Below are positions 11,283-63,769 of a DNA stretch of 64,000 bases, piece by piece. The translations under genes were made by a program, and so were the position numbers. The notes under the pieces are model-generated. The model made no database searches, had not been told where the DNA came from, and saw only the letters and a list, made by a program, of their open reading frames with translations. This DNA is from an uncultured Candidatus Saccharibacteria bacterium (lineage in GTDB: Bacteria; Patescibacteriota; Saccharimonadia; Saccharimonadales; CAZICT01), in the NCBI GenBank assembly GCA_964537935.1, contig CAZICT010000003.1:2013-66012 (forward strand), in the 5' to 3' direction. Within the stretch, counting starts at the first letter, position 1; each line of letters begins with the position of its first letter.

Positions 11283-11359
11283 TGGTAGCAGGGGCGAGAC
11301 TTGAACTCGCGACCCCAGGCTTATGAGTCCTGTGCTCTAACCAACTGAGCTACCCTGCC
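11283..11359 (-). tRNA. tRNA with CAU anticodon (elongator Met, or Ile2 if lysidine-modified), CCA encoded
   Basis: Reverse complement GGCAGGGTAGCTCAGTTGGTTAGAGCACAGGACTCATAAGCCTGGGGTCGCGAGTTCAAGTCTCGCCCCTGCTACCA folds as a cloverleaf. The 31:39 pair is A/G. Confidence 0.9.
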
Positions 11360-30245: not shown

Positions 30246-30322
30246 GGGTCCATAGCTCAGCCGGTTAGAGCACCTGCCTTTTAAGCAGGGTGTCGTGGGT
30301 TCGAGTCCCACTGGACCCTCCA
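30246..30322 (+). tRNA. tRNA-Lys(UUU), CCA encoded
   Basis: GGGTCCATAGCTCAGCCGGTTAGAGCACCTGCCTTTTAAGCAGGGTGTCGTGGGTTCGAGTCCCACTGGACCCTCCA gives a perfect cloverleaf. Confidence 0.96.
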
Positions 30323-30329
30323 AACCAAG

Positions 30330-30350
30330 AACTCCCTTTTGGGAGTTTTT
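30330..30350 (+). terminator. intrinsic terminator after tRNA-Lys
   Basis: aactccc-tttt-gggagtt followed by ttt. Confidence 0.7.
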
Positions 30351-30393
30351 AGTTTGGTTGCTTTAATGAGACTCAAACCCATGGCACTCCAAA

Positions 30394-30514
30394 AGGGTGT
30401 CGTGGGTGAAGATTGCCGGTGGCAATCTGCAAGAGAACCTTCACCTGACAGCTGTGCTGTCTTGGCAGAAGTTCTGGGCCCGCAGAATGTGGGCGAGTCC
30501 CACTGGACCCTCCA
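30394..30514 (+). ncRNA. partial tRNA-Lys 3' copy whose T-loop is interrupted by a four-helix element of about 86 nt (unclassified structured RNA)
   Basis: 30394-30407 and 30494-30516 are identical to tRNA-Lys. 30408-30493 replaces a single T-loop nucleotide and folds into four hairpins. A homologous element lies at 61938-62023. Confidence 0.6.
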
Positions 30515-50551: not shown

Positions 50552-50616
50552 ATTAATTAAATTTAGCTAAGTATTTGAACAATTTCCGTCACCGGTTATA
50601 CTTAAACATAAGTAAT

Positions 50617-53600
50617 ATGACAAGGTGCATGGGGATTCTGCATAGCAGTGGTGCGGTCTGGCGTAAGTCAAGGTCAGTCAGATTATTCGGAATCATTGCA
50701 ACACTACTAGTCAGTCAATTTAGTTTTCTGATTATGAGCACGACCAAGGTGGGTGCAGCGCCTGGTGATGGGCATATGCTGTTATTTTGGGATGGCGGAT
50801 CGGCTCCAAGTGGCTGGTCTTGTGTTTCTTGTAGTCCTGGCGATCCGTTTTATCAACGTTTCCCAAGAGCAAATCAAACTTACGGAGCTGTCGGTGGTAG
50901 TGCATCTCACAGTCATACGGTAACTGCAGTAGCAGATGCCTCAACTGCGACCGCCTCATTTGCTACAAGTGGAACTGCCATAGCCGACCGCACCCATAGC
51001 CACTCTGCTAGCGCGACAGTTAGCACAGTTTCCAGTCTGCCTGGCTATCGACAACTCAACATAATTCGACGTGATAATCCAGGGGAGCCCGGCACACTGC
51101 CAGCAGGAGCTATCGCTTTATTTGACGAAGCGGTGCCAAGCGGTTGGACGAGGTACGCTGCTCAAGACGGATATTATCCTTATGGGGGCTCCAGCGCTGG
51201 ATCCACCGGCGGCAATAACAATCACAACCATACCGTAAACGGAAGCCTGGATACAGCTAGCGGCATCACTCAAGGACAGGTTAACTTTTTTGGATCTCCT
51301 TCGGCGCGCTCCAACCACACTCATACTTTCAGTGGAACCAACAACTCGGTCAATCATGAACCGCCATACATTACAGCCATATTCGGAAAGCTCAACTCAG
51401 TGTCGACGTCTCCCGATGGCATGTTAGCCATGTGGGATGATGATGCGCCAAGCAATTGGACGATACAATCCGGCAGTTCAGGCAGTTTTTACCAACGGTT
51501 TATTAAGGGATCGGCTACCTACGGAAGTATTGGTGGCACGTTAAGTCATACACATAATGACCATAGTGTAGTTTCTAGCGGTCCTTCCGGCGGTTCGCTA
51601 AGTAGTTTAGGTGGAAGTCAAACAGCTTCAGGCTCTCATACTCATCAAGTGCATTTAACTAATTATTCAACCGAAGATAATATACCGCCTTATCGTGATG
51701 TAATAATTGCCAAGCGCGTACCGCAATCAGAAACCAATCTAGCGGCTTATAGGGTCTATAAAAACCATAATTCAACTGATATAGGTGAGCCATTAGCCAA
51801 TCAAAACACGATTGGCACGACCCCTAAAAAAGGCCGCACTTTTCGGGTGCGTATGCTCATAACAGTTACCAGCGCCAATCTTGGTATAGCCAATAAGGTA
51901 TTCAAGCTTCAAGTAGCCGAGCGCTCCGGCACGTGTGATACCGGTTTTATTGGTGAGACGTATAGCGACATTACTTCATCTGAAGGTAATATTAGATTTG
52001 CTGATAATACAAACGCTGCAGACGGCGCCAGTCTCACAGTCAATGCTGCCGATCCAACCAGCAGCAACCCAATAATTGCTCAAACCTACGAAGAGGATAA
52101 TACCTTTACCAATAATGCCGAAATCGCAATCGGCCAAGATGGTATGTGGGACTTTGCACTTGTTGATTATGCATCAAACGCATCCACCAGCTATTGCCTC
52201 AGAGTTGTGTATGGTGACGGTACGCTGCTGGATGACTATAGTGTCATTCCTCAAATAATTACCGATGATGGAAGCGGACACATGCTGCTGTACTATGCCG
52301 GAACAACCGTACCCTCCGGTTGGGAGTGTGTTTCATGTTTGCCAGAGGATGATCTCTACCAGCGTTTCGCACGCGGTTCAGATGCTTATGGCGCCAAAGG
52401 CGGATCGGCAACTCATAGCCACAGCGCTGACGGAAGTGTCGGTGGATCAAGCACTAATACTGTCAGCACCAATGCCAATAATGGAATATCAACCAATAGT
52501 CACACCCACACATTCAATCCAATAATCAGCAATACTAATTTATTGCCCCAGTACCGACAGTTAAAAATCATTCGAGCCGAAGTTAGCGGAGTACCCAACC
52601 AGCTGCCTGCTGGAGTTATTGCGATTTTTGACGGCACATTGCCGACTGGATGGACGCGTTATTCAGCTCAAGACGGGTATTACATAAGGGGTGAAAATAC
52701 CGTAGGAACAACAGGCGGAAGCAATACTCACAGCCACTCCATAACCGGAACCACAGGGGCGGCAGTAGGTGAAGCTGGGTCAGGCGGCGGCATATTTGGA
52801 TTAGTTTCGGCGGCCGTGCATGGACACACTCATAACGTCAACGGATCTACCAACTCGGTTAATCATGAACCGTTATATCGAGCGGTCATACTGGCCAGAT
52901 TGAATTCTGCCAGCCCGGCTCCCCTAAATATCATTGCGATGTGGGATGAGACTCCGCCGCTTTCCTGGACTCGTATGTCCGACGAAGGAGGTCCTTTATA
53001 CGAACGATTTACCAAAGCAGCGGCTACCTACGGTGGAACCGGTGGCAACGCCAGTCACTCCCATGCCAATGTAAACATCAACACTTCGGGTCCGAGCATA
53101 ACTACCAATGTTGCCAATAACGGCACTAACTCAAGCGGTTCTCATACGCACACTGTTACGGTGTCGAACATATCGTCTGAAGACAATCTTCCGCCGTATA
53201 CGGATGTAATTTATGCCAAGCAGGGCGCACTAAACACAGCACCTTATTCACCGGCTAACAGCCAGCAGTTACGTTCGAGCGATAATAGCCCAATTACGGT
53301 AGGCGCCTACTCAAACGGTTCACAGGTTACTTTCAGAGCTGAAGTCGAGGATCCTGATCCGGTAGACAGTCTACAGTTGTGTATAGAGATTGAGCTAATC
53401 GGGACAAATTTTGATAACAATCCCACGCAGTGTGGTGCCAGCGTGGACTACACAGGAGAACCGGTAGAGGCTGAAATGACGATCAATGGCCTGAGCGATG
53501 GGGCAAGCTACCACTGGCAGGCACGAGTTAAGGACGGCGGCGGCGCGATCTCTTCGTGGACAGCTTTTGGAGGTAATCCGGAAAATCAGGCTGATTTTAT

Positions 53601-54429
53601 AATGGACAGTTCGGCGCCGACCGGCTCGGTTTATGATGGTGACATCACTGGTTCCGATCAGGAATATAACGACGGGGCACTGGATAATTTATCGGCAAAC
53701 TGGGAATTTACAGATAGCGGCTCTGGGTTAATGGGTTATGAATATGCGATTGGAACAGCGCCTTCATCCACGGATATCAAACCGTATACCAGCGTTGGAC
53801 TGAATGACAGTGTGACAGCGCCTTCCTTGGCGCTTACCACCACGCAGGTTTATTATTTCAGTATTCGAGCTGTCGATAACGCTGGCAACGAAAACGTTAT
53901 TTCATCGGACGGCCAGCTGGTAGCTCCGTCAATATCATTCTCGGCAAGCACCGGCAGCATAACCTTTAACGGACTTAACCCTGGTAATGGCTACACCGAT
54001 ACGCAAACCACAACACTACAAACGACCACCAACGCCAAAAACGGCTATGTTATCAGAGCATACGCAACCGGCTTACTTACTTCTTCGAATGGGGAAACAA
54101 TCGATATGTTTGATGGCGGTACATATGCAAATCCCGATAGATGGAATCCAAATGACAAGGGGTTTGGCTACACTTCCAGCGACACCCTTGTGCAAGGTGT
54201 CAACAAATTTCATGCACCTATGTGTTTTGACGGCGGTACCAATTCTTGTTTTGCACCTTATTCCTTAACGTCACCAGGTGACATTGTTGCCGATAATCCT
54301 GGCCCGGTTTCCGGAACAGCAATATTAAATGAGATATTCACTATCACGCATAGAGTTACTACAAACAACGTGCAAGAGACGGGTAAATATACAACTACTC
54401 TGGTGTTCAATGCTTCGGTTTCGTTTTAG
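50617..54429 (+). CDS. giant secreted/surface protein with 2 x 3 tail-collar-like HxH modules and Ig/Fn3-like C-terminal domains
   Basis: N-terminal hydrophobic segment. Six modules of the form x-F/W-D..P.GW..(x)..Y.RF..YG..GG..HxH...HxH...(E/D)xxPPY. The start is uncertain (50575 TTG, 50617 or 50629 ATG). Confidence 0.75.
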   Translation: MTRCMGILHSSGAVWRKSRSVRLFGIIATLLVSQFSFLIMSTTKVGAAPGDGHMLLFWDGGSAPSGWSCVSCSPGDPFYQRFPRANQTYGAVGGSASHSHTVTAVADASTATASFATSGTAIADRTHSHSASATVSTVSSLPGYRQLNIIRRDNPGEPGTLPAGAIALFDEAVPSGWTRYAAQDGYYPYGGSSAGSTGGNNNHNHTVNGSLDTASGITQGQVNFFGSPSARSNHTHTFSGTNNSVNHEPPYITAIFGKLNSVSTSPDGMLAMWDDDAPSNWTIQSGSSGSFYQRFIKGSATYGSIGGTLSHTHNDHSVVSSGPSGGSLSSLGGSQTASGSHTHQVHLTNYSTEDNIPPYRDVIIAKRVPQSETNLAAYRVYKNHNSTDIGEPLANQNTIGTTPKKGRTFRVRMLITVTSANLGIANKVFKLQVAERSGTCDTGFIGETYSDITSSEGNIRFADNTNAADGASLTVNAADPTSSNPIIAQTYEEDNTFTNNAEIAIGQDGMWDFALVDYASNASTSYCLRVVYGDGTLLDDYSVIPQIITDDGSGHMLLYYAGTTVPSGWECVSCLPEDDLYQRFARGSDAYGAKGGSATHSHSADGSVGGSSTNTVSTNANNGISTNSHTHTFNPIISNTNLLPQYRQLKIIRAEVSGVPNQLPAGVIAIFDGTLPTGWTRYSAQDGYYIRGENTVGTTGGSNTHSHSITGTTGAAVGEAGSGGGIFGLVSAAVHGHTHNVNGSTNSVNHEPLYRAVILARLNSASPAPLNIIAMWDETPPLSWTRMSDEGGPLYERFTKAAATYGGTGGNASHSHANVNINTSGPSITTNVANNGTNSSGSHTHTVTVSNISSEDNLPPYTDVIYAKQGALNTAPYSPANSQQLRSSDNSPITVGAYSNGSQVTFRAEVEDPDPVDSLQLCIEIELIGTNFDNNPTQCGASVDYTGEPVEAEMTINGLSDGASYHWQARVKDGGGAISSWTAFGGNPENQADFIMDSSAPTGSVYDGDITGSDQEYNDGALDNLSANWEFTDSGSGLMGYEYAIGTAPSSTDIKPYTSVGLNDSVTAPSLALTTTQVYYFSIRAVDNAGNENVISSDGQLVAPSISFSASTGSITFNGLNPGNGYTDTQTTTLQTTTNAKNGYVIRAYATGLLTSSNGETIDMFDGGTYANPDRWNPNDKGFGYTSSDTLVQGVNKFHAPMCFDGGTNSCFAPYSLTSPGDIVADNPGPVSGTAILNEIFTITHRVTTNNVQETGKYTTTLVFNASVSF
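50764..51717 (+). repeat. intragenic repeat set A (three tail-collar-like modules)
   Basis: GDGHMLLFWDGG..SGWSCVSC.. through ..DNIPPYRDVIIAKR. Collinear with set B at 52270-53223. Confidence 0.8.
52270..53223 (+). repeat. intragenic repeat set B (three tail-collar-like modules)
   Basis: GSGHMLLYYAGT..SGWECVSC.. through ..DNLPPYTDVIYAKQ. Module-by-module counterpart of set A. Confidence 0.8.
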
Positions 54430-55357
54430 GTTTTGGCTGGTCTTTGTAGGTTTTTTGTTGTTTTTGCCGCTAAAAAACCATAGCTTGAATGCCCAGCAAA
54501 CCGTGGCGCCAACCATAAATGTCGCACCGGCCGTGATTGAAACTACTGTTAAGCCGGGAGAGGAGATCGAGCGGTTCGTGACAATTCGTGTGGATGGAGA
54601 AAATAGCCTGCCAATCAGTGTCCAAGTCCATCCTTTGTACGTGAACAGCGAATTACTTGACCCTTTAGACACCTCGAGATACGACTTCAAAAAACACATT
54701 TCGATAGACAATACCGATTTTATTGTTAATCCTGGAAAACCTGCCAAAATAAGGCTCAAGATCACTCCGCCGGAAGATTCGAGTGGCGGTTACTACGCCC
54801 AGCTGAACGTAAGGAGCCTGTATATTGAGGATACGCCCAGCTCACCTAGTAGCGCCAGAGTATTTCCGGAAGTGAGCGTGCCGATATTGCTTTCAACTAA
54901 CCAGGAAGTTATTAATGACGCACAGATTCCAACCAAAAATATATTTCCCTGGCAGTCAGCACCAAATCAAACCAGAGTTGCCACATTCGAGCTCGAAAAC
55001 ACCGGCAACATTCATAATCTTATGACTCCACAGGTGATTATTACCAGAAATGGACAAGAGGTTGAAAGCTTTACCGCGCAACCGTTTGTACTGTTGCCTA
55101 ATTCCCGGAAGCAGGTTGATATAAGTTGGCAGGTGCCGCAGGACTATGGGGTATACGAAGCGTCTATCAGTATGCAGCTTGGCGGTGAAGGGTTTACGAT
55201 TGATACTCCTAAGGAAAGGGTTATCGTTATGCCCAGCCCGCTTAGCATGCTGATATTTATAATTCTCATATGCTTGGGCGCTTATATTTTAGTTAATAAA
55301 AACAGGTTTATAAAGGCAGTAAAGGTACTTATTAATCCGGATAAAAAAATAACTTAA
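54410..55357 (+). CDS. DUF916/DUF3324-like (CscA-like) surface protein with C-terminal TM anchor
   Basis: Signal peptide MLRFRFRFWLVFVGFLLFLPL, two beta-sandwich-like halves, C-terminal TM helix plus basic tail. The ORF-track start at 54329 was trimmed. Confidence 0.5.
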   Translation: MLRFRFRFWLVFVGFLLFLPLKNHSLNAQQTVAPTINVAPAVIETTVKPGEEIERFVTIRVDGENSLPISVQVHPLYVNSELLDPLDTSRYDFKKHISIDNTDFIVNPGKPAKIRLKITPPEDSSGGYYAQLNVRSLYIEDTPSSPSSARVFPEVSVPILLSTNQEVINDAQIPTKNIFPWQSAPNQTRVATFELENTGNIHNLMTPQVIITRNGQEVESFTAQPFVLLPNSRKQVDISWQVPQDYGVYEASISMQLGGEGFTIDTPKERVIVMPSPLSMLIFIILICLGAYILVNKNRFIKAVKVLINPDKKIT

Positions 55358-55425
55358 TCTTCTTGTGCTTTTTAAAATGTTTATGTAAAGTATATTTAAC
55401 TTCAGACTATGAAGAGCAACACTAA

Positions 55426-56490
55426 ATGGGGGAAACAATGAAGACTATGACTGGTAGGCCAACGGCGCTTGTGGTGTTGGCTGCTTTATTAATGGCGACG
55501 CTTATTCCGGCAGCTCGGGTTATTGCTTTGACGAATAGCTCTCTTGCTCTGTCCGATCCGCGTACCAATCAAACAAACGTCAGTTATACGTTGAGCGTAA
55601 ACGGCTTGGCCGGCTCATCAATACAATGTATTGATATCTTTTTAAACACAGCTGCCGATGGCTCCGGCTCGGCGGTGCCTGGTATCGATACGTCCTCATT
55701 TGACCTTAGCAGTTCAACCGCTCTTACAGTGGGTTCATGGACTGAGAACACATCGGTAAACGGCCGGCTTCGCATCACGAGTGCAGGTGAAACGCCCAGC
55801 GCAAACGGCAACTTTGTATTTACGGGTATAAATAACGGCTCGAACACCGGAACCACTTATTACGCGGTATTTACCTCGTACTCAACTTCCGGGTGTACCG
55901 GTGGCAGCGAAGTTGACGAAGTATCGGTAGCTTTCGTTTACACCGATGGTGAATTGGTTGAACTTACCGTAGAACCAACATTGACCTTCAGCGTTAACAG
56001 CGTTGGATCAGGAGAAGACGTAAATTCTGTTCAAACCACTGCGGCTTCTTCTGCCAGTGGTATAGATTTCGGCAATAATGTAACTCAAGCCGCAAACGGG
56101 ATTTCAGCACACGATCTTGTTGTGACCACCAACGCGGTCGGCGGCTACACCGTATATATTCGCCACACCGGTAATCTTTCAAACGGTTCGCATGACATTG
56201 ACAATCATAGTGGTACCAATGCGTCACCAACTAGTTTTCCGGGTGTAGGTACCGAGGCTTGGGGATATGCGACTGAAGACAGCTCGCTCGCAGGCGGCAC
56301 GGCTAATCGCTTTACGACAGGCAATAACTGGGCTGGCTTTAGCGAAACCAACCAACCGGTAATGGACAACACCTCAGCTACGGTCGGTACCGACACGACT
56401 CGCGTCGGTCACCAAGTAGGTATTGCTGCTACCACCCCGGCAGGCTCATACCAAACCACCATAGTCTACACGGTTACCTCCACATACTAG
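55426..56490 (+). CDS. secreted beta-rich surface/fibre subunit candidate (WxL- or SCPU-like C-terminal strand)
   Basis: Signal peptide, Ser/Thr/Gly/Asn-rich, ends TTPAGSYQTTIVYTVTSTY. The start may be 55438. Confidence 0.45.
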   Translation: MGETMKTMTGRPTALVVLAALLMATLIPAARVIALTNSSLALSDPRTNQTNVSYTLSVNGLAGSSIQCIDIFLNTAADGSGSAVPGIDTSSFDLSSSTALTVGSWTENTSVNGRLRITSAGETPSANGNFVFTGINNGSNTGTTYYAVFTSYSTSGCTGGSEVDEVSVAFVYTDGELVELTVEPTLTFSVNSVGSGEDVNSVQTTAASSASGIDFGNNVTQAANGISAHDLVVTTNAVGGYTVYIRHTGNLSNGSHDIDNHSGTNASPTSFPGVGTEAWGYATEDSSLAGGTANRFTTGNNWAGFSETNQPVMDNTSATVGTDTTRVGHQVGIAATTPAGSYQTTIVYTVTSTY

Positions 56491-56556
56491 TAGTGCTTTG
56501 CATATCGGTGTGTCCGGTCTACAATATATTCAACAGTTAAAAAATACGGTGTTTGA

Positions 56557-57510
56557 GTGAGGAAACGACAAATCTTTTATGCGGCAGTTGCTTTCGTAGT
56601 CTCGGGAGCAACTGCTGTATTTGGTATCAACCTAATTCATGCCCAAGAAACTGAAAATCAGATTACATTGGCTGTTTCACCCCAGAGCCTGGATCTGACC
56701 GCTAATCCGGGCGAAAAGCTTACCAACACATTCCGTCTTACTAATGCTTCGAATGAAGCGGTCGAAATCGCAGTAGCTACAAAAAACTTTGTCCCGAGGG
56801 GCGAAGAAGGAGCAGTTGATCTTACGACCGATACGACCGGATTTTCGTTGGCGGAATGGATGGAGGTTCAGCCGCAAACCGTAAACCTCGGTGCGGGGAA
56901 GACAGAAGATTTTAAGGTTGATATCTCAGTCCCGGACGAAGCAGAACCGGGCAGTCACTTTGGATCGGTGGTATTCAGTACGGTGCCACAGGAAAGGGAA
57001 GGTACGGCAGCAGCAGTTTCTCAGGAAATTGCTCCGGTTATCCTGGTGCGTGTAGCTGGCGAAGTGGAAGAGTCGGCTCGCATAGTCGATTTTAAGGCCG
57101 ATAAATCTTTTTATAGCAACGAAGATAGCGTTACGCTCACGTCACGCATAGAAAATACCGGCAGTGTTCACTTCAAGCCGGCCGGAAAAATCGAAATAAA
57201 AAACATGTTCGGTAAAAAAGTCACAGAAATCGAACTTGATAAAAGGAATGTGCTTCCGGGGTCAGTCAGACAAATACCAACTACATGGGATAGCAGCGGT
57301 TTTAAGATTGGTCGGTATAAAGCGACACTCACGCTGGTTCTAGGTGACGGCAATATTATAGAAACAGACGAAACAACCATAACGTTCTTCCCGTACCAAG
57401 TTATCGTACCGGTAATACTCGTGATTGCGTTGGTTGTGTTTGGGATTGTCAGATATCGACAGCGCATAAAGTTGGCCCTAAGAGTACTTAGAGGCAAAGA
57501 CAATTCGTAG
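56557..57510 (+). CDS. DUF916/DUF3324-like (CscA-like) surface protein with C-terminal TM anchor
   Basis: ITLAVSPQSLDLTANPGEKLTNTFRLTN..., ..EPGSHFGSVVFS.., C-terminal TM helix plus RYRQRIK. Paralogous architecture to 54410-55357. Confidence 0.5.
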   Translation: MRKRQIFYAAVAFVVSGATAVFGINLIHAQETENQITLAVSPQSLDLTANPGEKLTNTFRLTNASNEAVEIAVATKNFVPRGEEGAVDLTTDTTGFSLAEWMEVQPQTVNLGAGKTEDFKVDISVPDEAEPGSHFGSVVFSTVPQEREGTAAAVSQEIAPVILVRVAGEVEESARIVDFKADKSFYSNEDSVTLTSRIENTGSVHFKPAGKIEIKNMFGKKVTEIELDKRNVLPGSVRQIPTTWDSSGFKIGRYKATLTLVLGDGNIIETDETTITFFPYQVIVPVILVIALVVFGIVRYRQRIKLALRVLRGKDNS

Positions 57511-58889
57511 TGTTTCGATTATTGCGAAACAACAGTAAAGCTCTTTGTGTCGTGGCGTGTGCCGCGGTTATGGCGAATTTATTTTGGAATGGTAGCCTTA
57601 CGGCTCAGACGCCAGTTAGACTGACAGTGCCGGATACAGCCGTACGCATCAGTGGTTTTGCGGCTCCTAAGGCGCTTGTGACCGCCAAGCGTGATGGAAC
57701 GGTAGTCGGTTCTGTTACCGCCAATAGCCAGGGAGGTTTTGAGTTCGTGTTCGGTTCGCAAACACCCGGAATCTACAACTACAGTGTTTTTTATGAGCAC
57801 CTTAATGGTTTGCGTTCAGTTGAAGAAACGATGTCGGTAAGCGTACAAAACAAACAAACCACCGACATCAGGATTTATTTGCGACCGCTTGTTTTACCTC
57901 TTTTGGACGACGAAGTCGTTCAGGGCGGCATTTTACAAGTGCGCGGTCACACTGCGGCTGGTGGAAAAGTCGTTTTAACTATAGACGAAAACAAGCAGGA
58001 GCTGTCAGCGACTGCCGATTCAAGCGGGTTCTATGAGTTTTTGATTGATACCAAAAACTTGAATACCGGACGGTACCATTTCAAAATAACCGCAACCAAA
58101 GATGGGCTATCAAGCGACCGAACGTCACCGGTTTCTTTTACGGTTCATGCCAGCAACAGTACTGATGCCGATCCGACAGACGATGTGACTGTCCAGCCGG
58201 AACAACTGCCGCCGCCAACAGTTTCTTCACCTCAGGACGGAGAGACGATTGAGGGTAAAAGCGTCACGATTTATGGACGTTCCTCTCCCGGTTCGCAAGT
58301 TAATATTTATACCGATGACAATCTGATAGCCTCGGTCCTGACCGGCGAAGACGGTTCGTGGAACTACAACTACACCGCCAATACTCCTAAGGTCTCTTTC
58401 TCTTTCTCAGCGTGCATCGAAAGCCGATGTAGCATTATTACAAGAAGCATCACAGTTTCTTTCGCTGTTCCCGATTCATGCTCAGTAGAGCTTGAGCTGA
58501 GTGCGCTTAGGTTTTGGGATATTGCAGCCGGCAGCCAAATAGAGCTGGAGGTTATCAGGGCCTCAGGCAACGGCGAGTTCACCATAGATTGGGGCAACGA
58601 CAGCACTGAAACATATTCACATGATGGAAAGTTACCCCGTGTCTTTAGGGGCCGCTACGACTTTCCCGGCTTATACCAGGGAAAAATTACATACCGGCAA
58701 TATTCGACAGCTACCACCAGAGCTTGCAGTGCGGAGCGTGTATTCAGTATCAATGTTCGAAACGAGCTTAGTAAAAGCGATTTTAGCCCTGCTTTGCGAG
58801 TCGGCATATTCAGCCTGGCGCTAGTAAGTGTTTCCGGTGCGCTATGGTTCACCCGCAGCAAGTGGCTGGCTTTACTGTTACGAAAATAA
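57510..58889 (+). CDS. Ig-like repeat surface protein with C-terminal TM anchor
   Basis: Signal peptide. Repeated beta-sandwich segments (VRISGFAAP..VTA, LQVRGHTAAGGKVVLT, ETIEGKSVTIYGRSSPGSQVNIY). Its GTG start overlaps the upstream stop. Confidence 0.5.
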   Translation: MFRLLRNNSKALCVVACAAVMANLFWNGSLTAQTPVRLTVPDTAVRISGFAAPKALVTAKRDGTVVGSVTANSQGGFEFVFGSQTPGIYNYSVFYEHLNGLRSVEETMSVSVQNKQTTDIRIYLRPLVLPLLDDEVVQGGILQVRGHTAAGGKVVLTIDENKQELSATADSSGFYEFLIDTKNLNTGRYHFKITATKDGLSSDRTSPVSFTVHASNSTDADPTDDVTVQPEQLPPPTVSSPQDGETIEGKSVTIYGRSSPGSQVNIYTDDNLIASVLTGEDGSWNYNYTANTPKVSFSFSACIESRCSIITRSITVSFAVPDSCSVELELSALRFWDIAAGSQIELEVIRASGNGEFTIDWGNDSTETYSHDGKLPRVFRGRYDFPGLYQGKITYRQYSTATTRACSAERVFSINVRNELSKSDFSPALRVGIFSLALVSVSGALWFTRSKWLALLLRK

Positions 58890-58931: not shown

Positions 58932-59720
58932 ATGAGAATTCTTTATGTCGGCGATATTATGGGGCGGCCGGGAATTGATACCGTCGCTCAGATTTTACCG
59001 GAAATGCGGTCGCTTCACGAACCTGACTTGATAATTGCCCAAGCCGAAAACGTAACCGAGGGTAGGGGTATGTCAGGTGAAGATATGCAAGAGCTGCAGA
59101 GTCTTGGGATTGATTGCTTTACCGGCGGCAACTGGAGCACGTTCCGGGACGGCGTATTGAACGATACCGATCCGGTAACGCGTCCGGCCAATTATACGAC
59201 TGAAACTCCCGGGAAAGGTTACCGTTATATCGGAACGTCCCTAGGAGAGGTGCTGGTAATCAGTTTGCTTGGAAAGATCGTTGGCAAAGATGCGGATAAG
59301 ATTATTAAAAATCCGCTGCAAACTATCGATGAGATTCTGGAAAAAGAGAACGACCGTAAAAAAATTGCTACCGTGGTTAATTTTCACGGTGACTACAGTA
59401 GTGAAAAGCGAATAATCGGCTACTATCTGGACGGCAGGGTGTCTGCGGTAATCGGCGATCATTGGCATGTGCCAACAGCTGATGCCATGGTTCTGCCAAA
59501 GGGTACGGCTCATATTACAGATGTAGGAATGTGTGGCAGCTTGCACTCAAGCTTGGGAGTGAAGCTTGAGAGCGTAATTCCCAGGTGGCAAAAGGGAAAG
59601 ACGACCAGAAACGTCATTGAAGACGCAAAACCTTATCAATTTAATGCAGTGCTGGTCGAAATAGACAAAACTAGCGGCCTAGCCAGCAATATTACTCATA
59701 TTCAAAAAATAATAAGTTAG
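58932..59720 (+). CDS. ymdB: YmdB-like metallophosphoesterase (2',3'-cyclic-nucleotide phosphodiesterase family)
   Basis: MRILYVGDIMGRPG, AENVTEGRG, GNW, HWHVPTAD motifs of TIGR00282-type proteins. Confidence 0.9.
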   Translation: MRILYVGDIMGRPGIDTVAQILPEMRSLHEPDLIIAQAENVTEGRGMSGEDMQELQSLGIDCFTGGNWSTFRDGVLNDTDPVTRPANYTTETPGKGYRYIGTSLGEVLVISLLGKIVGKDADKIIKNPLQTIDEILEKENDRKKIATVVNFHGDYSSEKRIIGYYLDGRVSAVIGDHWHVPTADAMVLPKGTAHITDVGMCGSLHSSLGVKLESVIPRWQKGKTTRNVIEDAKPYQFNAVLVEIDKTSGLASNITHIQKIIS

Positions 59721-59768: not shown

Positions 59769-59803
59769 AGACTCGGAGTTGAATCGGAGTCGACTCCGAG
59801 TCT
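59769..59803. repeat. short palindromic repeat made of three ACTCSGAGT-type units
   Basis: agACTCGGAGTtgaATCGGAGTcgACTCCGAGTct. Same unit family as 1169-1205. Confidence 0.6.
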
Positions 59804-59901
59804 TGTGATAATAGGCATATAATTATGGACTGACATCCCAGGATTATAAATTAACCCGGACAGAGGTTTTAAAGCTTGTTTATGATATGTGGCTGATAAG
59901 T

Positions 59902-61845: not shown

Positions 61846-61853
61846 TGTATAAT
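61846..61853 (+). promoter_or_regulatory. extended -10 promoter (TGTATAAT) upstream of the tRNA-Pro locus
   Basis: tgTATAAT lies 27 nt before the tRNA-like 5' end at 61881. Confidence 0.55.
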
Positions 61854-61880: not shown

Positions 61881-62029
61881 CGGGGATTGGCGCAGTTGGC
61901 TAGCGCGCTTAGGTCTTTGGACCGCGAGGTCGGAGGTGAAAACAGCCTGTGGCTGTTTGCAAGGAAGCCTTCCGATGCCAACTGGTTGGCAATTGTGAAG
62001 CTTCGGGGTCGCGGAACGTGACCGAGTCC
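61881..62029 (+). ncRNA. tRNA-Pro 5' copy (defective anticodon arm) fused at the T-loop to a four-helix element of about 86 nt (unclassified structured RNA)
   Basis: 61881-61910 and 61919-61937 are identical to tRNA-Pro. The insert at 61938-62022 starts at the same T-loop position as 30408-30493. Only CGAGTCC of the tRNA follows. Confidence 0.6.
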
Positions 62030-62064
62030 GTAGGAGTCGAACCTTTATAGTAGAATGTTGATAT

Positions 62065-62141
62065 CGGGGATTGGCGCAGTTGGCTAGCGCGCGCGGTTTG
62101 GGACCGCGAGGTCGGAGGTTCGAGTCCTCTATCCCCGACCA
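62065..62141 (+). tRNA. tRNA-Pro(UGG), CCA encoded
   Basis: CGGGGATTGGCGCAGTTGGCTAGCGCGCGCGGTTTGGGACCGCGAGGTCGGAGGTTCGAGTCCTCTATCCCCGACCA folds as a cloverleaf. Confidence 0.96.
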
Positions 62142-63769
62142 CGATCGAAATCATTCGATATTAAGAACCCTTTCCAGGGTTCTTTTAATTTGAAATCAAC
62201 TTTGTACCCCTGTTTTTTGTCCTTGAGCGGGGCAGTAATAGTGAAGTTCGAGAAAAAGTTTTTTAATACGTTGTTCATTAGCTCAATATCATGTATTTGC
62301 GGGATTGTAACAGATGCATTTCCAATAAGTTCGAGATATTTCTCATAAGTTATTACCGAGCCTTTTAGTGCTTTCCTCCGGTCAGTTGCTTTCTTGAATT
62401 GGTTTTCTAACTTCTTCAGCTCTTTCTGCATTGCATCCAGATCATAGTGTTGCTTCATGCTAGGATCATTGGCCACTAAGTTCTTAGCATTTTCATATTT
62501 TTCCTCTTTAGTGGCGATAACCTTCATGAGTTCAGCAATCTGTGAAGAGAGTTTTCGTGCGCGTTTCTTGTTAGTCTCTTCAACACGCTTAACATGTTCC
62601 TTGTAGTTTGACCGAGTTGTAAAGCGGTACTTGTTAAAGAAGTCTATTACTTCATTCAGGACCACCTTTGCACGAATGCTCTTGTTTTTGAACGGACAAG
62701 TGAATGTCTCGCATTTGTAATAGTAGTAATACTTAGTTCCGGGCTTCAGTTTCTTAGATGTTATCCCTGAAGCAAATGGTTTTCCGCAGTGACCACAGTC
62801 AATCATACCTCTTAAAAGCATGGCTCTCGTGGTTCTTGGGTTTTTAACCAGCATAGAGGACTCCAGGCGACCTGATTTGAAGCTAGACACCCTATTTATC
62901 TTCATGAAGTCTTCAACGGTCACAGCAGGCTCAAAATCATAATAATCGTGCAAATTGACCGTATGTTTCCCGTACTTTAGTACTCCGGCGTAGGTAGGGT
63001 CCTTCAAGAGTTTTGAAATAGCATCTTTATCCCATTTGAACCGTATGTGTTCTTTTCTATATGGCTTCACCGTGTAAGTAGTTGTGTTTAGCCATTTTGC
63101 TATATCAGCTTGTGTCTCCTTATTAAGCCGTTCTTCGAAAACACGTTTTATTAAAATGAAGTTCTCACCATCAGGTTGCAGCCTCCGTTGTTCATCAATA
63201 TAGTATCCATGTTTCTTTTTACCTAGGAATTGACCGCTTTCAGTGATCCTTTTATTGCCTCTTGTTACAGACTCGCTCAAATGCTCAGAGTATTGCTTAG
63301 AGAGAACGAAGGATATGCCTAATGTCATTTTTCCAGTAGGTGTATTTTCGAAAGAACTTGTAGCAAACTGGAGATCCTTGATAATGCCTTTATCCAGAAG
63401 GTCAATGATCTCTCCGGCCTCTTTCATATTTCGAGAGAGTCTATCAGGATGCCAGGAGAGGATTGCGTCAGCTTTACCATCAATGATTTCTTTAATGACG
63501 CTCCTAAACTCAGGACGCGTCTCCGATTGTTTTGCGGAGGCCTTTTCTTTAACGACTTTTACGATGTTAAGAGATCGAGGATTTGCTATCCGTTCCATAC
63601 ACTCCTTAATTTGATCAGGTATGGACCTCTCTTGACGCTCCTCGTCATAGGTAGATTTCCTAGCGTATAAAATGTATCGGAGGTTAGTGACGTCAATTTC
63701 AGAAGGACTATCATCTTGAAGACTACCTTGAAGTAGTTCGTGAAGCTCTTTAGGGTTGCTGGGTAGCAT
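62129..63769 (-). CDS. large serine recombinase (resolvase catalytic domain + recombinase domain + zinc-ribbon/coiled-coil)
   Basis: YILYARKSTYDEERQERSIPDQ (catalytic Ser), ILSWHPDRLSRN, Cys cluster CGHCGKPF...YYYKCETFTCPF. The last four codons overlap the tRNA-Pro 3' end. Confidence 0.9.
   Translation of the reverse strand: MLPSNPKELHELLQGSLQDDSPSEIDVTNLRYILYARKSTYDEERQERSIPDQIKECMERIANPRSLNIVKVVKEKASAKQSETRPEFRSVIKEIIDGKADAILSWHPDRLSRNMKEAGEIIDLLDKGIIKDLQFATSSFENTPTGKMTLGISFVLSKQYSEHLSESVTRGNKRITESGQFLGKKKHGYYIDEQRRLQPDGENFILIKRVFEERLNKETQADIAKWLNTTTYTVKPYRKEHIRFKWDKDAISKLLKDPTYAGVLKYGKHTVNLHDYYDFEPAVTVEDFMKINRVSSFKSGRLESSMLVKNPRTTRAMLLRGMIDCGHCGKPFASGITSKKLKPGTKYYYYYKCETFTCPFKNKSIRAKVVLNEVIDFFNKYRFTTRSNYKEHVKRVEETNKKRARKLSSQIAELMKVIATKEEKYENAKNLVANDPSMKQHYDLDAMQKELKKLENQFKKATDRRKALKGSVITYEKYLELIGNASVTIPQIHDIELMNNVLKNFFSNFTITAPLKDKKQGYKVDFKLKEPWKGFLISNDFDRGRG

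Follow-up and report, generated by a model that had tools for sequence, protein, structure and literature searches.

Transposable introns have reportedly been found in the tRNA genes of Thermoproteales archaea; introns of this kind lie at non-canonical positions, form a bulge-helix-bulge (BHB) and are cut by the EndA splicing endonuclease. Integrating elements are said to leave tRNA gene fragments behind them. The Rickettsia palindromic elements and the palindrome-associated transposable elements (PATEs) derived from IS200/IS605 are about 100 nt long, occur in many copies per genome and encode no protein, and circular permutation is typical of hammerhead (types I–III) and twister ribozymes. 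Bacterial group I introns have been described in tRNA genes, including those of Patescibacteria (PMC13011429), and integration into tRNA genes is classically recognised by partial tRNA duplicates that lie next to the intact genes (PMC9897764). Here we describe a structured cassette of 86–87 nt located in tRNA-gene fragments of an uncultured Candidatus Saccharibacteria bacterium (assembly GCA_964537935.1). The window, that is the whole stretch analysed, comprises 64,000 nt of contig CAZICT010000003.1 (positions 2,013 to 66,012, forward strand), in which a first-pass annotation had pointed out one copy at a tRNA-Pro gene and a second at a tRNA-Lys gene. No description of the element was found in the full-text literature searched, which left most subscription journals out of reach, so a prior description is possible.

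The cassette belongs to a large RNA element family that has no Rfam 15 counterpart and is located in the tRNA-gene fragments of Saccharibacteria. The coordinates and sequences of both window loci were as first annotated, and the Pro copy sits, as proposed, in the T-loop of a defective tRNA copy. The features of this Pro module are given below, where R1 denotes the covariance model seeded from the two window copies and P1–P4 the helices of the cassette.

61848 to 61853, plus strand: -10-like box TATAAT with TG directly before it, 27 nt 5' of the partial tRNA-Pro
61881 to 61937, plus strand: truncated tRNA-Pro(UGG) duplicate, positions 1–54 (sequence repeat)
61938 to 62023, plus strand: 86-nt cassette, Pro copy (fold, pairs, family covariation, R1 match of 121.8 bits)
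61940 to 61947 and 61951 to 61958, plus strand: P1 of the cassette, loop UGU
61959 to 61963, plus strand: junction GCAAG of the cassette
61964 to 62004, plus strand: long P2/P3 hairpin of the cassette
62005 to 62006, plus strand: GG of the cassette
62007 to 62013 and 62017 to 62023, plus strand: P4 of the cassette, loop GAA, with the conserved G·U
62024 to 62029, plus strand: GAGTCC, 3' part of the T-loop and start of the T-stem 3' strand, tRNA-Pro 57–62
62033 to 62046, plus strand: inverted T-loop/T-stem piece GGAGTCGAACCTTT (fold of the flanks with the cassette masked)
62051 to 62056, plus strand: -10-like box TAGAAT in the spacer before the intact tRNA-Pro
62065 to 62141, plus strand: intact tRNA-Pro(UGG), the gene whose fragment hosts the cassette (ARAGORN, Rfam)
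62163 to 62184, plus strand: terminator-like hairpin 3' of tRNA-Pro

The partial tRNA-Pro copy has an intact acceptor 5' strand, D-arm, variable region and T-stem 5' strand and a rewritten anticodon arm. Relative to the intact gene, an exact block of 28 nt (annotated at first as 30) is followed by the rewritten arm and by 19 further exact nucleotides ending in GGAGGT; this second block, GGACCGCGAGGTCGGAGGT, was exact as annotated. The anticodon arm is altered but not wholly lost as had been claimed, a 4-bp hairpin GGTC/GACC still being possible in this region. The annotated extended -10 upstream held in so far as the TATAAT is perfect and directly preceded by TG, but it is unaccompanied by a -35, and a consensus promoter scan called no full sigma-70 promoter at this position. 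The box is a possible promoter of the Pro module, judged by its sequence and placement.

The second locus differs in layout, the intact gene standing first and the cassette being joined to a tRNA 3' end. Its features, together with the remaining tRNA gene of the window, are as follows.

30246 to 30322, plus strand: intact tRNA-Lys(UUU), partner gene of the second cassette copy (ARAGORN, Rfam)
30327 to 30350, plus strand: terminator-like hairpin between tRNA-Lys and the Lys module
30368 to 30389, plus strand: inverted arm of the Lys module (sequence, fold)
30395 to 30407, plus strand: sense arm GGGTGTCGTGGGT, tRNA-Lys 42–54 (variable loop, T-stem 5' strand and T54)
30408 to 30494, plus strand: 87-nt cassette, Lys copy (R1 match of 122.6 bits)
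30410 to 30417 and 30421 to 30428, plus strand: P1 of the cassette
30429 to 30433, plus strand: GCAAG of the cassette
30434 to 30475, plus strand: P2/P3 of the cassette
30476 to 30477, plus strand: GG of the cassette
30478 to 30484 and 30488 to 30494, plus strand: P4 of the cassette
30495 to 30514, plus strand: tRNA-Lys 3' fragment GAGTCCCACTGGACCCTCCA, positions 57–76 including CCA
11283 to 11359, minus strand: intact tRNA-Met(CAU) (ARAGORN, Rfam)

The partial tRNA copies were called by neither ARAGORN nor Rfam at either locus. A second U-rich hairpin region is visible in the sequence after the tRNA-Lys 3' fragment and was not called by the terminator scan. The two cassettes align without large gaps and position for position at approximately 60% identity, confirming the earlier hand count, and both contain the same three hairpins, namely P1 (8 bp), the long P2/P3 and P4 (7 bp). 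Their z-scores against shuffled sequences were -3.1 and -3.8, and RNAalifold, run on both cassettes together, gave 29 pairs, 10 of them changed on both sides. The compensatory preservation of helices that had been annotated is thus borne out, but not as four separate helices, P2 and P3 forming one interrupted hairpin; the P1 sequences had been swapped between the copies, AGATTGCC being that of the Lys copy. The segment TTGCTTTAATGAG at 30363–30375, before the Lys inverted arm, resembles the boxA antitermination consensus (TGCTCTTTAACAA); it is present only in the Lys copy, and the resemblance is probably a coincidence. Modules flank two of the three tRNA genes of the window, tRNA-Met(CAU) being without a companion as previously noted, and the R1 search found no third cassette copy in the 64 kb.

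The family was sampled in two ways. For the first sample, an exact 5'-half pattern, which selects for P1, GCAAG and CCTTC, was scanned over species-representative genomes. This returned 71 loci, of which about 58 were from Candidatus Saccharibacteria/Saccharimonadales metagenome-assembled genomes (MAGs) and the rest a handful of expected chance matches. R1 then gave 89 matches from 72 sources, almost all Saccharibacteria MAGs, often several per locus and with scores from 122 down to 22 bits. Apart from the two copies on which the model was built, 87 of these were recovered from other genomes, at E-values as low as 1e-29 and so far beyond chance. For the second sample, an exact 3'-half pattern, which leaves P1 and P2 unconstrained, was applied to metagenome contigs and gave at least 120 hits, on which R1 made about 48 strong matches. 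Sampling was through exact patterns and a model from two copies, and alignments made with R1 lean towards the model structure; slid and shuffled controls and structure-blind alignments agree with the R1-based structure.

At the gathering threshold, Rfam 15 identified only the three tRNAs in the whole window, and at E ≤ 10 nothing overlapped the cassette at either locus, known ribozymes and Intron_gpI included. Searches of 18 other loci and 15 betaproteobacterial loci likewise returned tRNAs only. The best weak match was LAGLIDADG-2 (26.7 bits against a gathering score of 94.9), ARAGORN found no tmRNA, and YrlA reached 14.2 bits against a gathering score of 69 and lay over the genuine tRNA-Lys. 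The earlier statement that no known RNA family fits is supported by these results.

The consensus of the cassette is (G)GU-GAR, P1 (tip GCC-NGU-GGC), U-GCAAG, P2 with a bulged C, P3 (loop CUNG), GG and P4 (CGC-N-GAA-N-GUG), and the junction nucleotides UGAR, GCAAG, GG and GAA are conserved. Pairing was 97.4% in the first sample and 96.5% in the second, against 28–49% when the partners were slid, with double changes in 20 of 23 and 19 of 23 pairs respectively; none of 500 shuffles reached the covariation score. For the second sample, P1 was 96.7% and P2 94.9% paired, all 16 pairs of the two helices covaried, and the 5' nucleotides were conserved alike even though selection had been on the 3' half. 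Mutual information recovered the nested helices P1–P4 only, with no pseudoknot, loop-loop or tertiary covariation. P4 retains a G·U pair in 73 of 86 sequences of the first sample and in all 72 of the second, which assigns the fold to the tRNA-sense strand. The folding strand is therefore the tRNA-sense strand, either as RNA or as single-stranded DNA of that strand. The strand-specific G·U pairs and the covariation across the family support the original view of a conserved structured element rather than junk.

In nearly every copy, the tRNA-derived sequence that flanks the cassette on either side has its complement in a nearby segment, which the first-pass annotation had missed. For the Pro module, C62023 together with GAGTCC (62024–62029) forms the 5' strand of a helix Hb, in which CGAGTCC pairs with GGAGTCG with one G·G mismatch. 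A second helix, Ha, is formed by CCTTT (62042–62046) with GGAGG at 61932–61936, which re-forms the T-stem, so that this stem is not open, and the AA of GGAGTCGAACCTTT lies opposite the cassette, unpaired or pairing with U54. For the Lys module, Hb consists of GAGACTC (30368–30374) with GAGTCCC 3' of the cassette (one A·C mismatch), AA at 30375–30376 is unpaired, and Ha pairs ACCCATGGCACTC (30377–30389) with GGGTGTCGTGGGT, all three imperfections being G·U-compatible. The inverted piece (C)TCGAACC... is present in all T-loop copies with the layout of the Pro module. The predicted fold is a five-way junction of Ha, P1, P2/P3, P4 and Hb closed by the inverted piece, so that the earlier picture of a simple decayed tRNA was too narrow.

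These flank helices carry their own marks of selection. Among 78 non-redundant flanks, 126 G·U pairs were counted against 8 A·C single mismatches, an asymmetry expected only if the tRNA-sense strand folds under selection. Native sense and antisense arms paired at -8.4 kcal/mol, compared with -6.0 for arms swapped between units (Wilcoxon p = 6e-7); for the Lys module the native arm duplex was at -15.1 kcal/mol against a cross-unit mean of -6.6. In a structure-blind MAFFT alignment of 31 units with the Lys layout, Ha and Hb were 66% paired versus 33–53% when slid, and 0 of 500 shuffles reached the covariation score.

Approximately 70 of the 89 R1 matches have an intact tRNA of matching identity on the same strand within 400 nt, and several of the remainder are at locus ends or beside remnants. 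The hosts span more than 20 anticodons (Lys, Pro, Met, Val, Trp, Leu, Glu, Gln, His, Arg, Gly, Phe, Ile and others), and every cassette whose flanks are of identifiable tRNA origin is in the sense of that tRNA. The commonest site is between T54 and C56. Other sites are D-loop positions 17–20 (tRNA-Glu, tRNA-Met), positions 24–26 (Gly-GCC, Phe, Gln), the anticodon loop (Pro-GGG) and the variable loop (Val), and 0–3 target nucleotides are missing at the junctions. Two layouts were distinguished. Type A, represented by the Pro copy, consists of a promoter-proximal partial 5' copy, the cassette, a short tail, a spacer with a -10-like box and the intact gene; type B, represented by the Lys copy, consists of the intact gene, a terminator, an inverted arm, a short sense arm, the cassette, a tRNA 3' end with CCA and a second terminator. 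All cassettes outside the T-loop are type A. The two types are circular permutations of one another, type A having Ha open and Hb capped and type B the reverse. A distance of 35–130 nt, free of any integrase, separates the partial from the intact tRNA copies.

Of 70 partial tRNA duplicates, 17 lacked an R1 match, and some of these have short unrelated hairpins at the same T-loop position. Others among them have related inserts in the same architecture that keep only the GAA and P1 end (L012 after tRNA-Lys, L022:7579-7720, L024:5430-5620 and L068:4780-5100), and one keeps only a P4-like end (L045:4306-4500). Two loci (L032:3361-3500 and L033:2308-2470) contain other insert families in the same succession of tRNA, terminator, inverted T-loop, hairpins and 3' fragment. 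The Logan contigs L001 and L002 start about 120–145 nt before comEC, and the end of L078 falls within tRNA-Pro. In this organism, short-read assemblies break in or beside the cassette and at shared tRNA-Pro sequence, and the modules therefore fragment MAGs and should be under-represented at contig ends.

The explanation that we put first, tentatively and as close to an even call, is that of a duplicative RNA-structured cassette which settles in redundant pieces of tRNA genes and would have a putative role as an RNA. A mobile cassette would enter loop positions of tRNA-like sequence in sense orientation. Candidate routes are recombination or a template switch at the conserved sequences of the T-loop and D-loop, and insertion at the level of single-stranded DNA or RNA. 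A single crossover or template switch 3' of the cassette would yield type B and one 5' of the cassette type A, and the near-palindromic T-loop (TTCGAA) would favour a fold-back that creates the inverted arm. The cassette would persist only in redundant fragments beside an intact gene, because insertion into the sole gene copy would be lethal. The module would then be transcribed with the tRNA locus and work as a folded RNA, most likely as a protein-binding or processing domain, and for that reason selection would keep the cassette helices and flank clamps. Type A modules, with -10-like boxes in front, may be transcribed from these, and type B would need terminator read-through.

Signs of spread are numerous. 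At six or more loci a cassette lies inside another cassette, always at the same site in the P4 5' strand (GGG|NN|GCRGAA). One pseudo-tRNA-Glu (L030, 7640–8000) contains three cassettes, one each in its D-, anticodon and T-loops. Identical tandem units of 170–220 nt are present at four loci (L006, L018, L059 and L068) and three diverged units in a row at another (L065). The Lys cassette of the window is nearly identical to the L034 cassette, which is in a tRNA-Met-type context, and the two window cassettes differ from each other by 40%. Conserved ends, P1 and P4, enclose a middle that can be replaced, even between adjacent recent duplicates (L068). The many tRNA hosts, several loop positions, nesting and tandem units agree with the mobile or intron-like element initially suggested, but not with its restriction to the T-loop.

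At two loci (L015:2300-3600, minus strand, and L034:63-1250), two near-identical type B units of about 200 nt surround a 0.9-kb segment. An open reading frame (ORF) on the opposite strand of this segment encodes a 205-aa membrane protein, and the segment also includes a third tRNA 3' fragment, which differs in identity (GGTTCGAGTCCTAGCTATTGGACCA). The layout suggests that another element has integrated into the pseudo-3' end.

The same nested copies, the triple pseudo-tRNA, the tandem arrays and the decayed remnants look like proliferation litter and so speak against a rather unlikely second explanation, a host-beneficial family of tRNA-linked RNA genes in which the 5' or 3' part of the cognate tRNA is fused to a common effector cassette; the position of type B modules behind a terminator is a further point against it. 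The tRNA-mimic regulatory RNA named as one option in the first-pass annotation is of this kind and is a live rival. Members of such a family could act as decoys, sensors or regulators for factors that recognise tRNAs (modification or processing enzymes, ribotoxins, integrases), a role to which we assign the same low likelihood. An equally unlikely variant is control of the maturation of the adjacent tRNA, the inverted arm competing with the genuine or the decoy T-arm.

In favour of a host gene family is purifying selection at orthologous loci with saturated spacers. Five orthologous tRNA-Gly(GCC) modules at position 25/26 have unalignable leaders and spacers and have kept the cassette and a rewritten anticodon hairpin, ACTTGCCAGGCCAAGGA. 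Their P1 variants, with compensatory changes, are AACTGCC/GGCAGTT, CATCGCC/GGCGATG, GCCCGCT/GGCGGGC and AGCTGCC/GGCAGGT. The window Pro module and its orthologous copy at L041 likewise share the same rewritten anticodon arm and differ in P1 and P4 by paired changes. Gene conversion from other copies may have had a share in this, but the modules clearly persist and stay folded in very small genomes, and the selection on the fold seen at the tRNA-Gly(GCC) loci counts for the first explanation as well. The G·U over A·C bias of the clamps and the helix-specific matching of the arms also argue for selection on a folded sense strand, and the conserved junction nucleotides (UGAR, GCAAG, GG, GAA) count on the same side. 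The unrelated inserts at the same T-loop position in the same architecture suggest that the architecture itself matters. The insertion positions probably coincide with loops contacted by tRNA-binding enzymes, judged by the sites of tRNA modification.

A shorter relative outside the Saccharibacteria, found at one conserved locus with covarying hairpins, also favours a host gene. About 20 metagenome matches were on high-GC contigs, all directly after tRNA-Leu(CAG) and its terminator (L083, L087, L094, L096, L100, L102, L116, L117, L124, L126, L132, L133, L142, L143, L149, L151 and L153; an example module is L096:9333-9458). One of these loci, L132, carries an RNase R whose nearest named relatives are Betaproteobacteria/Burkholderiales. 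The module begins with the complement of the acceptor 3' strand, a covarying hairpin and the complement of the T-stem 3' strand and T-loop (GGGACTCGAA). It continues with a second covarying hairpin with a (U)UGCAAG loop, GG, the same P4 (GGUCGCGGAACGUGACC) and GAGUCC with the rest of the tRNA 3' end, often followed by the terminator again, and is sometimes in tandem. RNAalifold on nine sequences gave 30 pairs, 16 with compensatory changes. Saccharibacterial and betaproteobacterial modules share Hb, P1 and P4, so the minimal common core is a three-way junction, with Ha and P2/P3 as expansions.

The conserved junction also bears on a third, improbable explanation, that of a new small ribozyme or intron-like RNA. 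The five-way junction would be the catalytic core, with cleavage or ligation at the cassette boundaries or at the unpaired dinucleotide opposite. In an equally improbable extension, the inverted piece would serve as an internal guide that aligns the flanks, and insertion would proceed at the RNA level by reverse splicing or ligation and be fixed by reverse transcription. The strictly sense orientation, targets that are single-stranded loops of a folded tRNA, a continuous strand pairing both flanks with 1–2 unpaired nucleotides left opposite the cassette, the conserved junction nucleotides and the natural circular permutation of types A and B, which recalls the hammerhead and twister, are all consistent with this proposal. 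It is weakened by the lack of any Rfam ribozyme or intron match, even at E ≤ 10, and of pseudoknot or tertiary covariation. In addition, the incomplete host copies would make a splicing product useless, the preferred nested target is in a helix strand (the P4 5' strand) rather than a loop, and no linked reverse transcriptase gene was found.

The neighbouring genes were considered for a fourth explanation, that of recombination-site debris, in which the partial tRNAs are attL/attR scars and the cassette is a conserved part of the attachment region. A large serine recombinase gene (62129–63769, minus strand; Resolvase, Recombinase and Zn-ribbon domains) abuts tRNA-Pro(UGG), its ORF running into the 3' end of the tRNA gene. 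With about seven mostly unannotated genes, one of them an AAA_14/DUF4143 ATPase, it fills an 8.3-kb segment (L078, 8310 nt) that runs beyond the window end, is bounded by tRNA-Pro(UGG) and tRNA-Pro(CGG) and may be a small island between the two tRNA-Pro genes. The recombinase, the partial duplicates beside intact genes, a known integration signature (PMC9897764), and the 0.9-kb cargo flanked by type B pairs at L015 and L034 would fit such debris. This explanation is nevertheless largely refuted and, of the four, the least probable. The recombinase is beyond the intact tRNA-Pro, in the separate segment, and no recombinase family recurs at the other loci (about 58 in all), so that the link to it proposed in the first-pass annotation was rejected. 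The attL/attR reading itself was also rejected, the copies being 35–130 nt apart with no integrase between them and the recombinase outside the pair. The covariation and strand-specific G·U pairs indicate a single-stranded sense fold and not protein-binding duplex DNA, and cassettes also occur in D-, anticodon and variable loops and inside each other.

All-versus-all clustering of the ORFs at the same 58 or so loci identified no protein family enriched beside the modules, only syntenic housekeeping genes at no more than 8 loci each, and neither transposase nor reverse transcriptase recurred; this lack of a linked enzyme gene counts in favour of the first explanation. The interval of 30.4–61.9 kb was rejected as an island bounded by the two copies; it contains comEC, yebC, ruvCAB, type IV pilus genes, RNase Y and dnaK. 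Two exact patterns had no hits in IMG/VR, and blastn had none among the INPHARED phages. These negatives count against debris as well, and because of them a phage or viral origin is unsupported.

Several points weigh against the mobile cassette that we put first. No clean pair of empty and filled sites was recovered in the comparison of tRNA loci among relatives, and for this reason we infer the insertion unit and mechanism. As candidate empty sites, the tRNA-Pro of L017 was rejected as not syntenic with the window, the ComEC relatives were rejected as at most 56% identical and without a tRNA-Lys neighbour, and L047, compared with L018, had a decayed remnant in place of a clean empty site. What looks like compensatory evolution could stem from gene conversion among copies, transcription of the module is something that we infer for every copy, and the regular partial duplicate with its inverted piece fits no standard transposition chemistry. 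That modules are retained for long, with compensatory change, in genomes of about 1 Mb is explained at least as readily by a host function as by selfishness, and the single conserved locus in Betaproteobacteria looks, from its sequence context, more like a gene than a mobile element. Finally, exact-pattern scans underlie the sampling, through which alone the taxonomic range and per-genome copy number are seen.

More broadly, the modules may represent a hitherto overlooked class of RNA associated with tRNA genes and spanning more than one bacterial phylum, a proposal that is possible if doubtful. A cassette with a P1/P4 core would be grafted into loops, clamped by an inverted arm, and would work as a catalytic or RNA-level mobile element or as a programmable tRNA-mimic ribonucleoprotein, with the flanks providing specificity and the cassette a protein-binding scaffold. 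Saccharibacteria have genomes of about 1 Mb that are shedding non-essential DNA, yet many of their tRNA genes are flanked by modules. If mobile, the cassette would represent a new strategy by which selfish DNA or RNA takes advantage of tRNA genes and yet leaves them intact, and a new origin of the tRNA fragments that mislead annotation and interrupt assemblies. If instead the RNA is functional, the modules would make up a large family of tRNA-derived RNAs that extends across the lineage, is united by one effector domain and has a relative in Betaproteobacteria. This would add a further layer of tRNA biology (processing, decoys against tRNA-targeting enzymes, regulation) in a phylum of the uncultivated majority. 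On either reading a well-supported covariance model is ready for curation.

Other features of the window were also recorded. A 38-nt block of palindromic 11-nt GACTCGGAGTY units is present at 1166–1203 and, in inverted orientation and 58.5 kb away, at 59770–59807; both blocks directly follow ORFs (109–1074 and ymdB at 58932–59720), and they are probably a repeated bidirectional terminator-like element. An ORF of 1284 aa (50575–54429) without a Pfam match has an internal direct duplication of about 1.5 kb (51097–51555 versus 52603–53064, 70–79% identity) and is followed by more Pfam-less ORFs and by Ig-like or WxL-interacting surface proteins (54329–58889).

Among known systems, tRNA-like non-coding RNAs of the tmRNA or YrlA type were rejected, the T-loop being the very site that is interrupted here. 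Integron attC-like sites, IS91 (GTTC) and box C/D or H/ACA-like RNAs were dropped as misfits in junction positions or polarity. Like the Thermoproteales introns, the cassettes are short related sequences in sense orientation at several loop positions of many tRNA genes in one lineage, with signs of spread. Unlike those introns, which are excised by protein from complete functional genes, they have truncated hosts with an intact gene alongside, are found in a bacterium and have a three-hairpin fold of their own. No bulge-helix-bulge motif was evident in the predicted folds, which were viewed without formal scoring. An archaeal-type (BHB) intron was rejected: the Pro copy lacks a tRNA-derived T-stem 3' strand and acceptor 3' strand and has a rewritten anticodon arm, and the Lys copy lacks positions 1–41.

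With group I introns the cassette shares a structured RNA in a tRNA gene of the Candidate Phyla Radiation, sense orientation and a covarying fold. Group I introns are longer than 200 nt, have a P1–P9 core, interrupt complete genes at the anticodon loop and are recognised by Rfam, whereas the cassette has 86 nt, three plain hairpins, no Rfam match and mostly T-loop sites in incomplete copies. Its size, simple hairpins, lack of an Intron_gpI match and incomplete hosts rule out a group I intron. The partial 3' copies begin in or near the T-loop, as attL/attR fragments do; they differ from these in the 35–250 nt between copies, the absence of an integrase, the interruption by a structured cassette and the inverted arm kept complementary by G·U-compatible changes.

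A DDE-type miniature inverted-repeat transposable element was rejected, the ends UGAR.. and ..GUGAC not being inverted repeats and 0–3 target nucleotides being missing rather than duplicated. Closer likenesses are to the ends of IS200/IS605 elements, which share the lack of terminal inverted repeats and of target duplication, hairpins near both ends, strand specificity and conserved ends around a variable middle. As in PATEs, the structure is strand-specific, with P1 beginning 3–4 nt from the 5' end and P4 ending at the 3' end. No transposase was found in the window regions examined or in the loci. The 5' flanks of the cassettes end in ..GG(U/C) or ..AG(U), a weak motif compared with the 4–5-nt target of PATEs. 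The cassette differs from PATEs in this mere G-G-Y preference, its confinement to tRNA-derived sequence, the inverted target piece in its flanks and junctions that are as conserved as its ends.

The hammerhead, twister, twister-sister, hatchet, pistol, HDV-like and hairpin ribozymes were each rejected, with no match at E ≤ 10 and no pseudoknot covariation. The cassette is thus unlike known self-cleaving ribozymes in sequence, structure and the absence of tertiary covariation. With circularly permuted ribozymes it has in common a multi-helix junction, conserved junction nucleotides, different helices open or capped in types A and B, and tandem copies.

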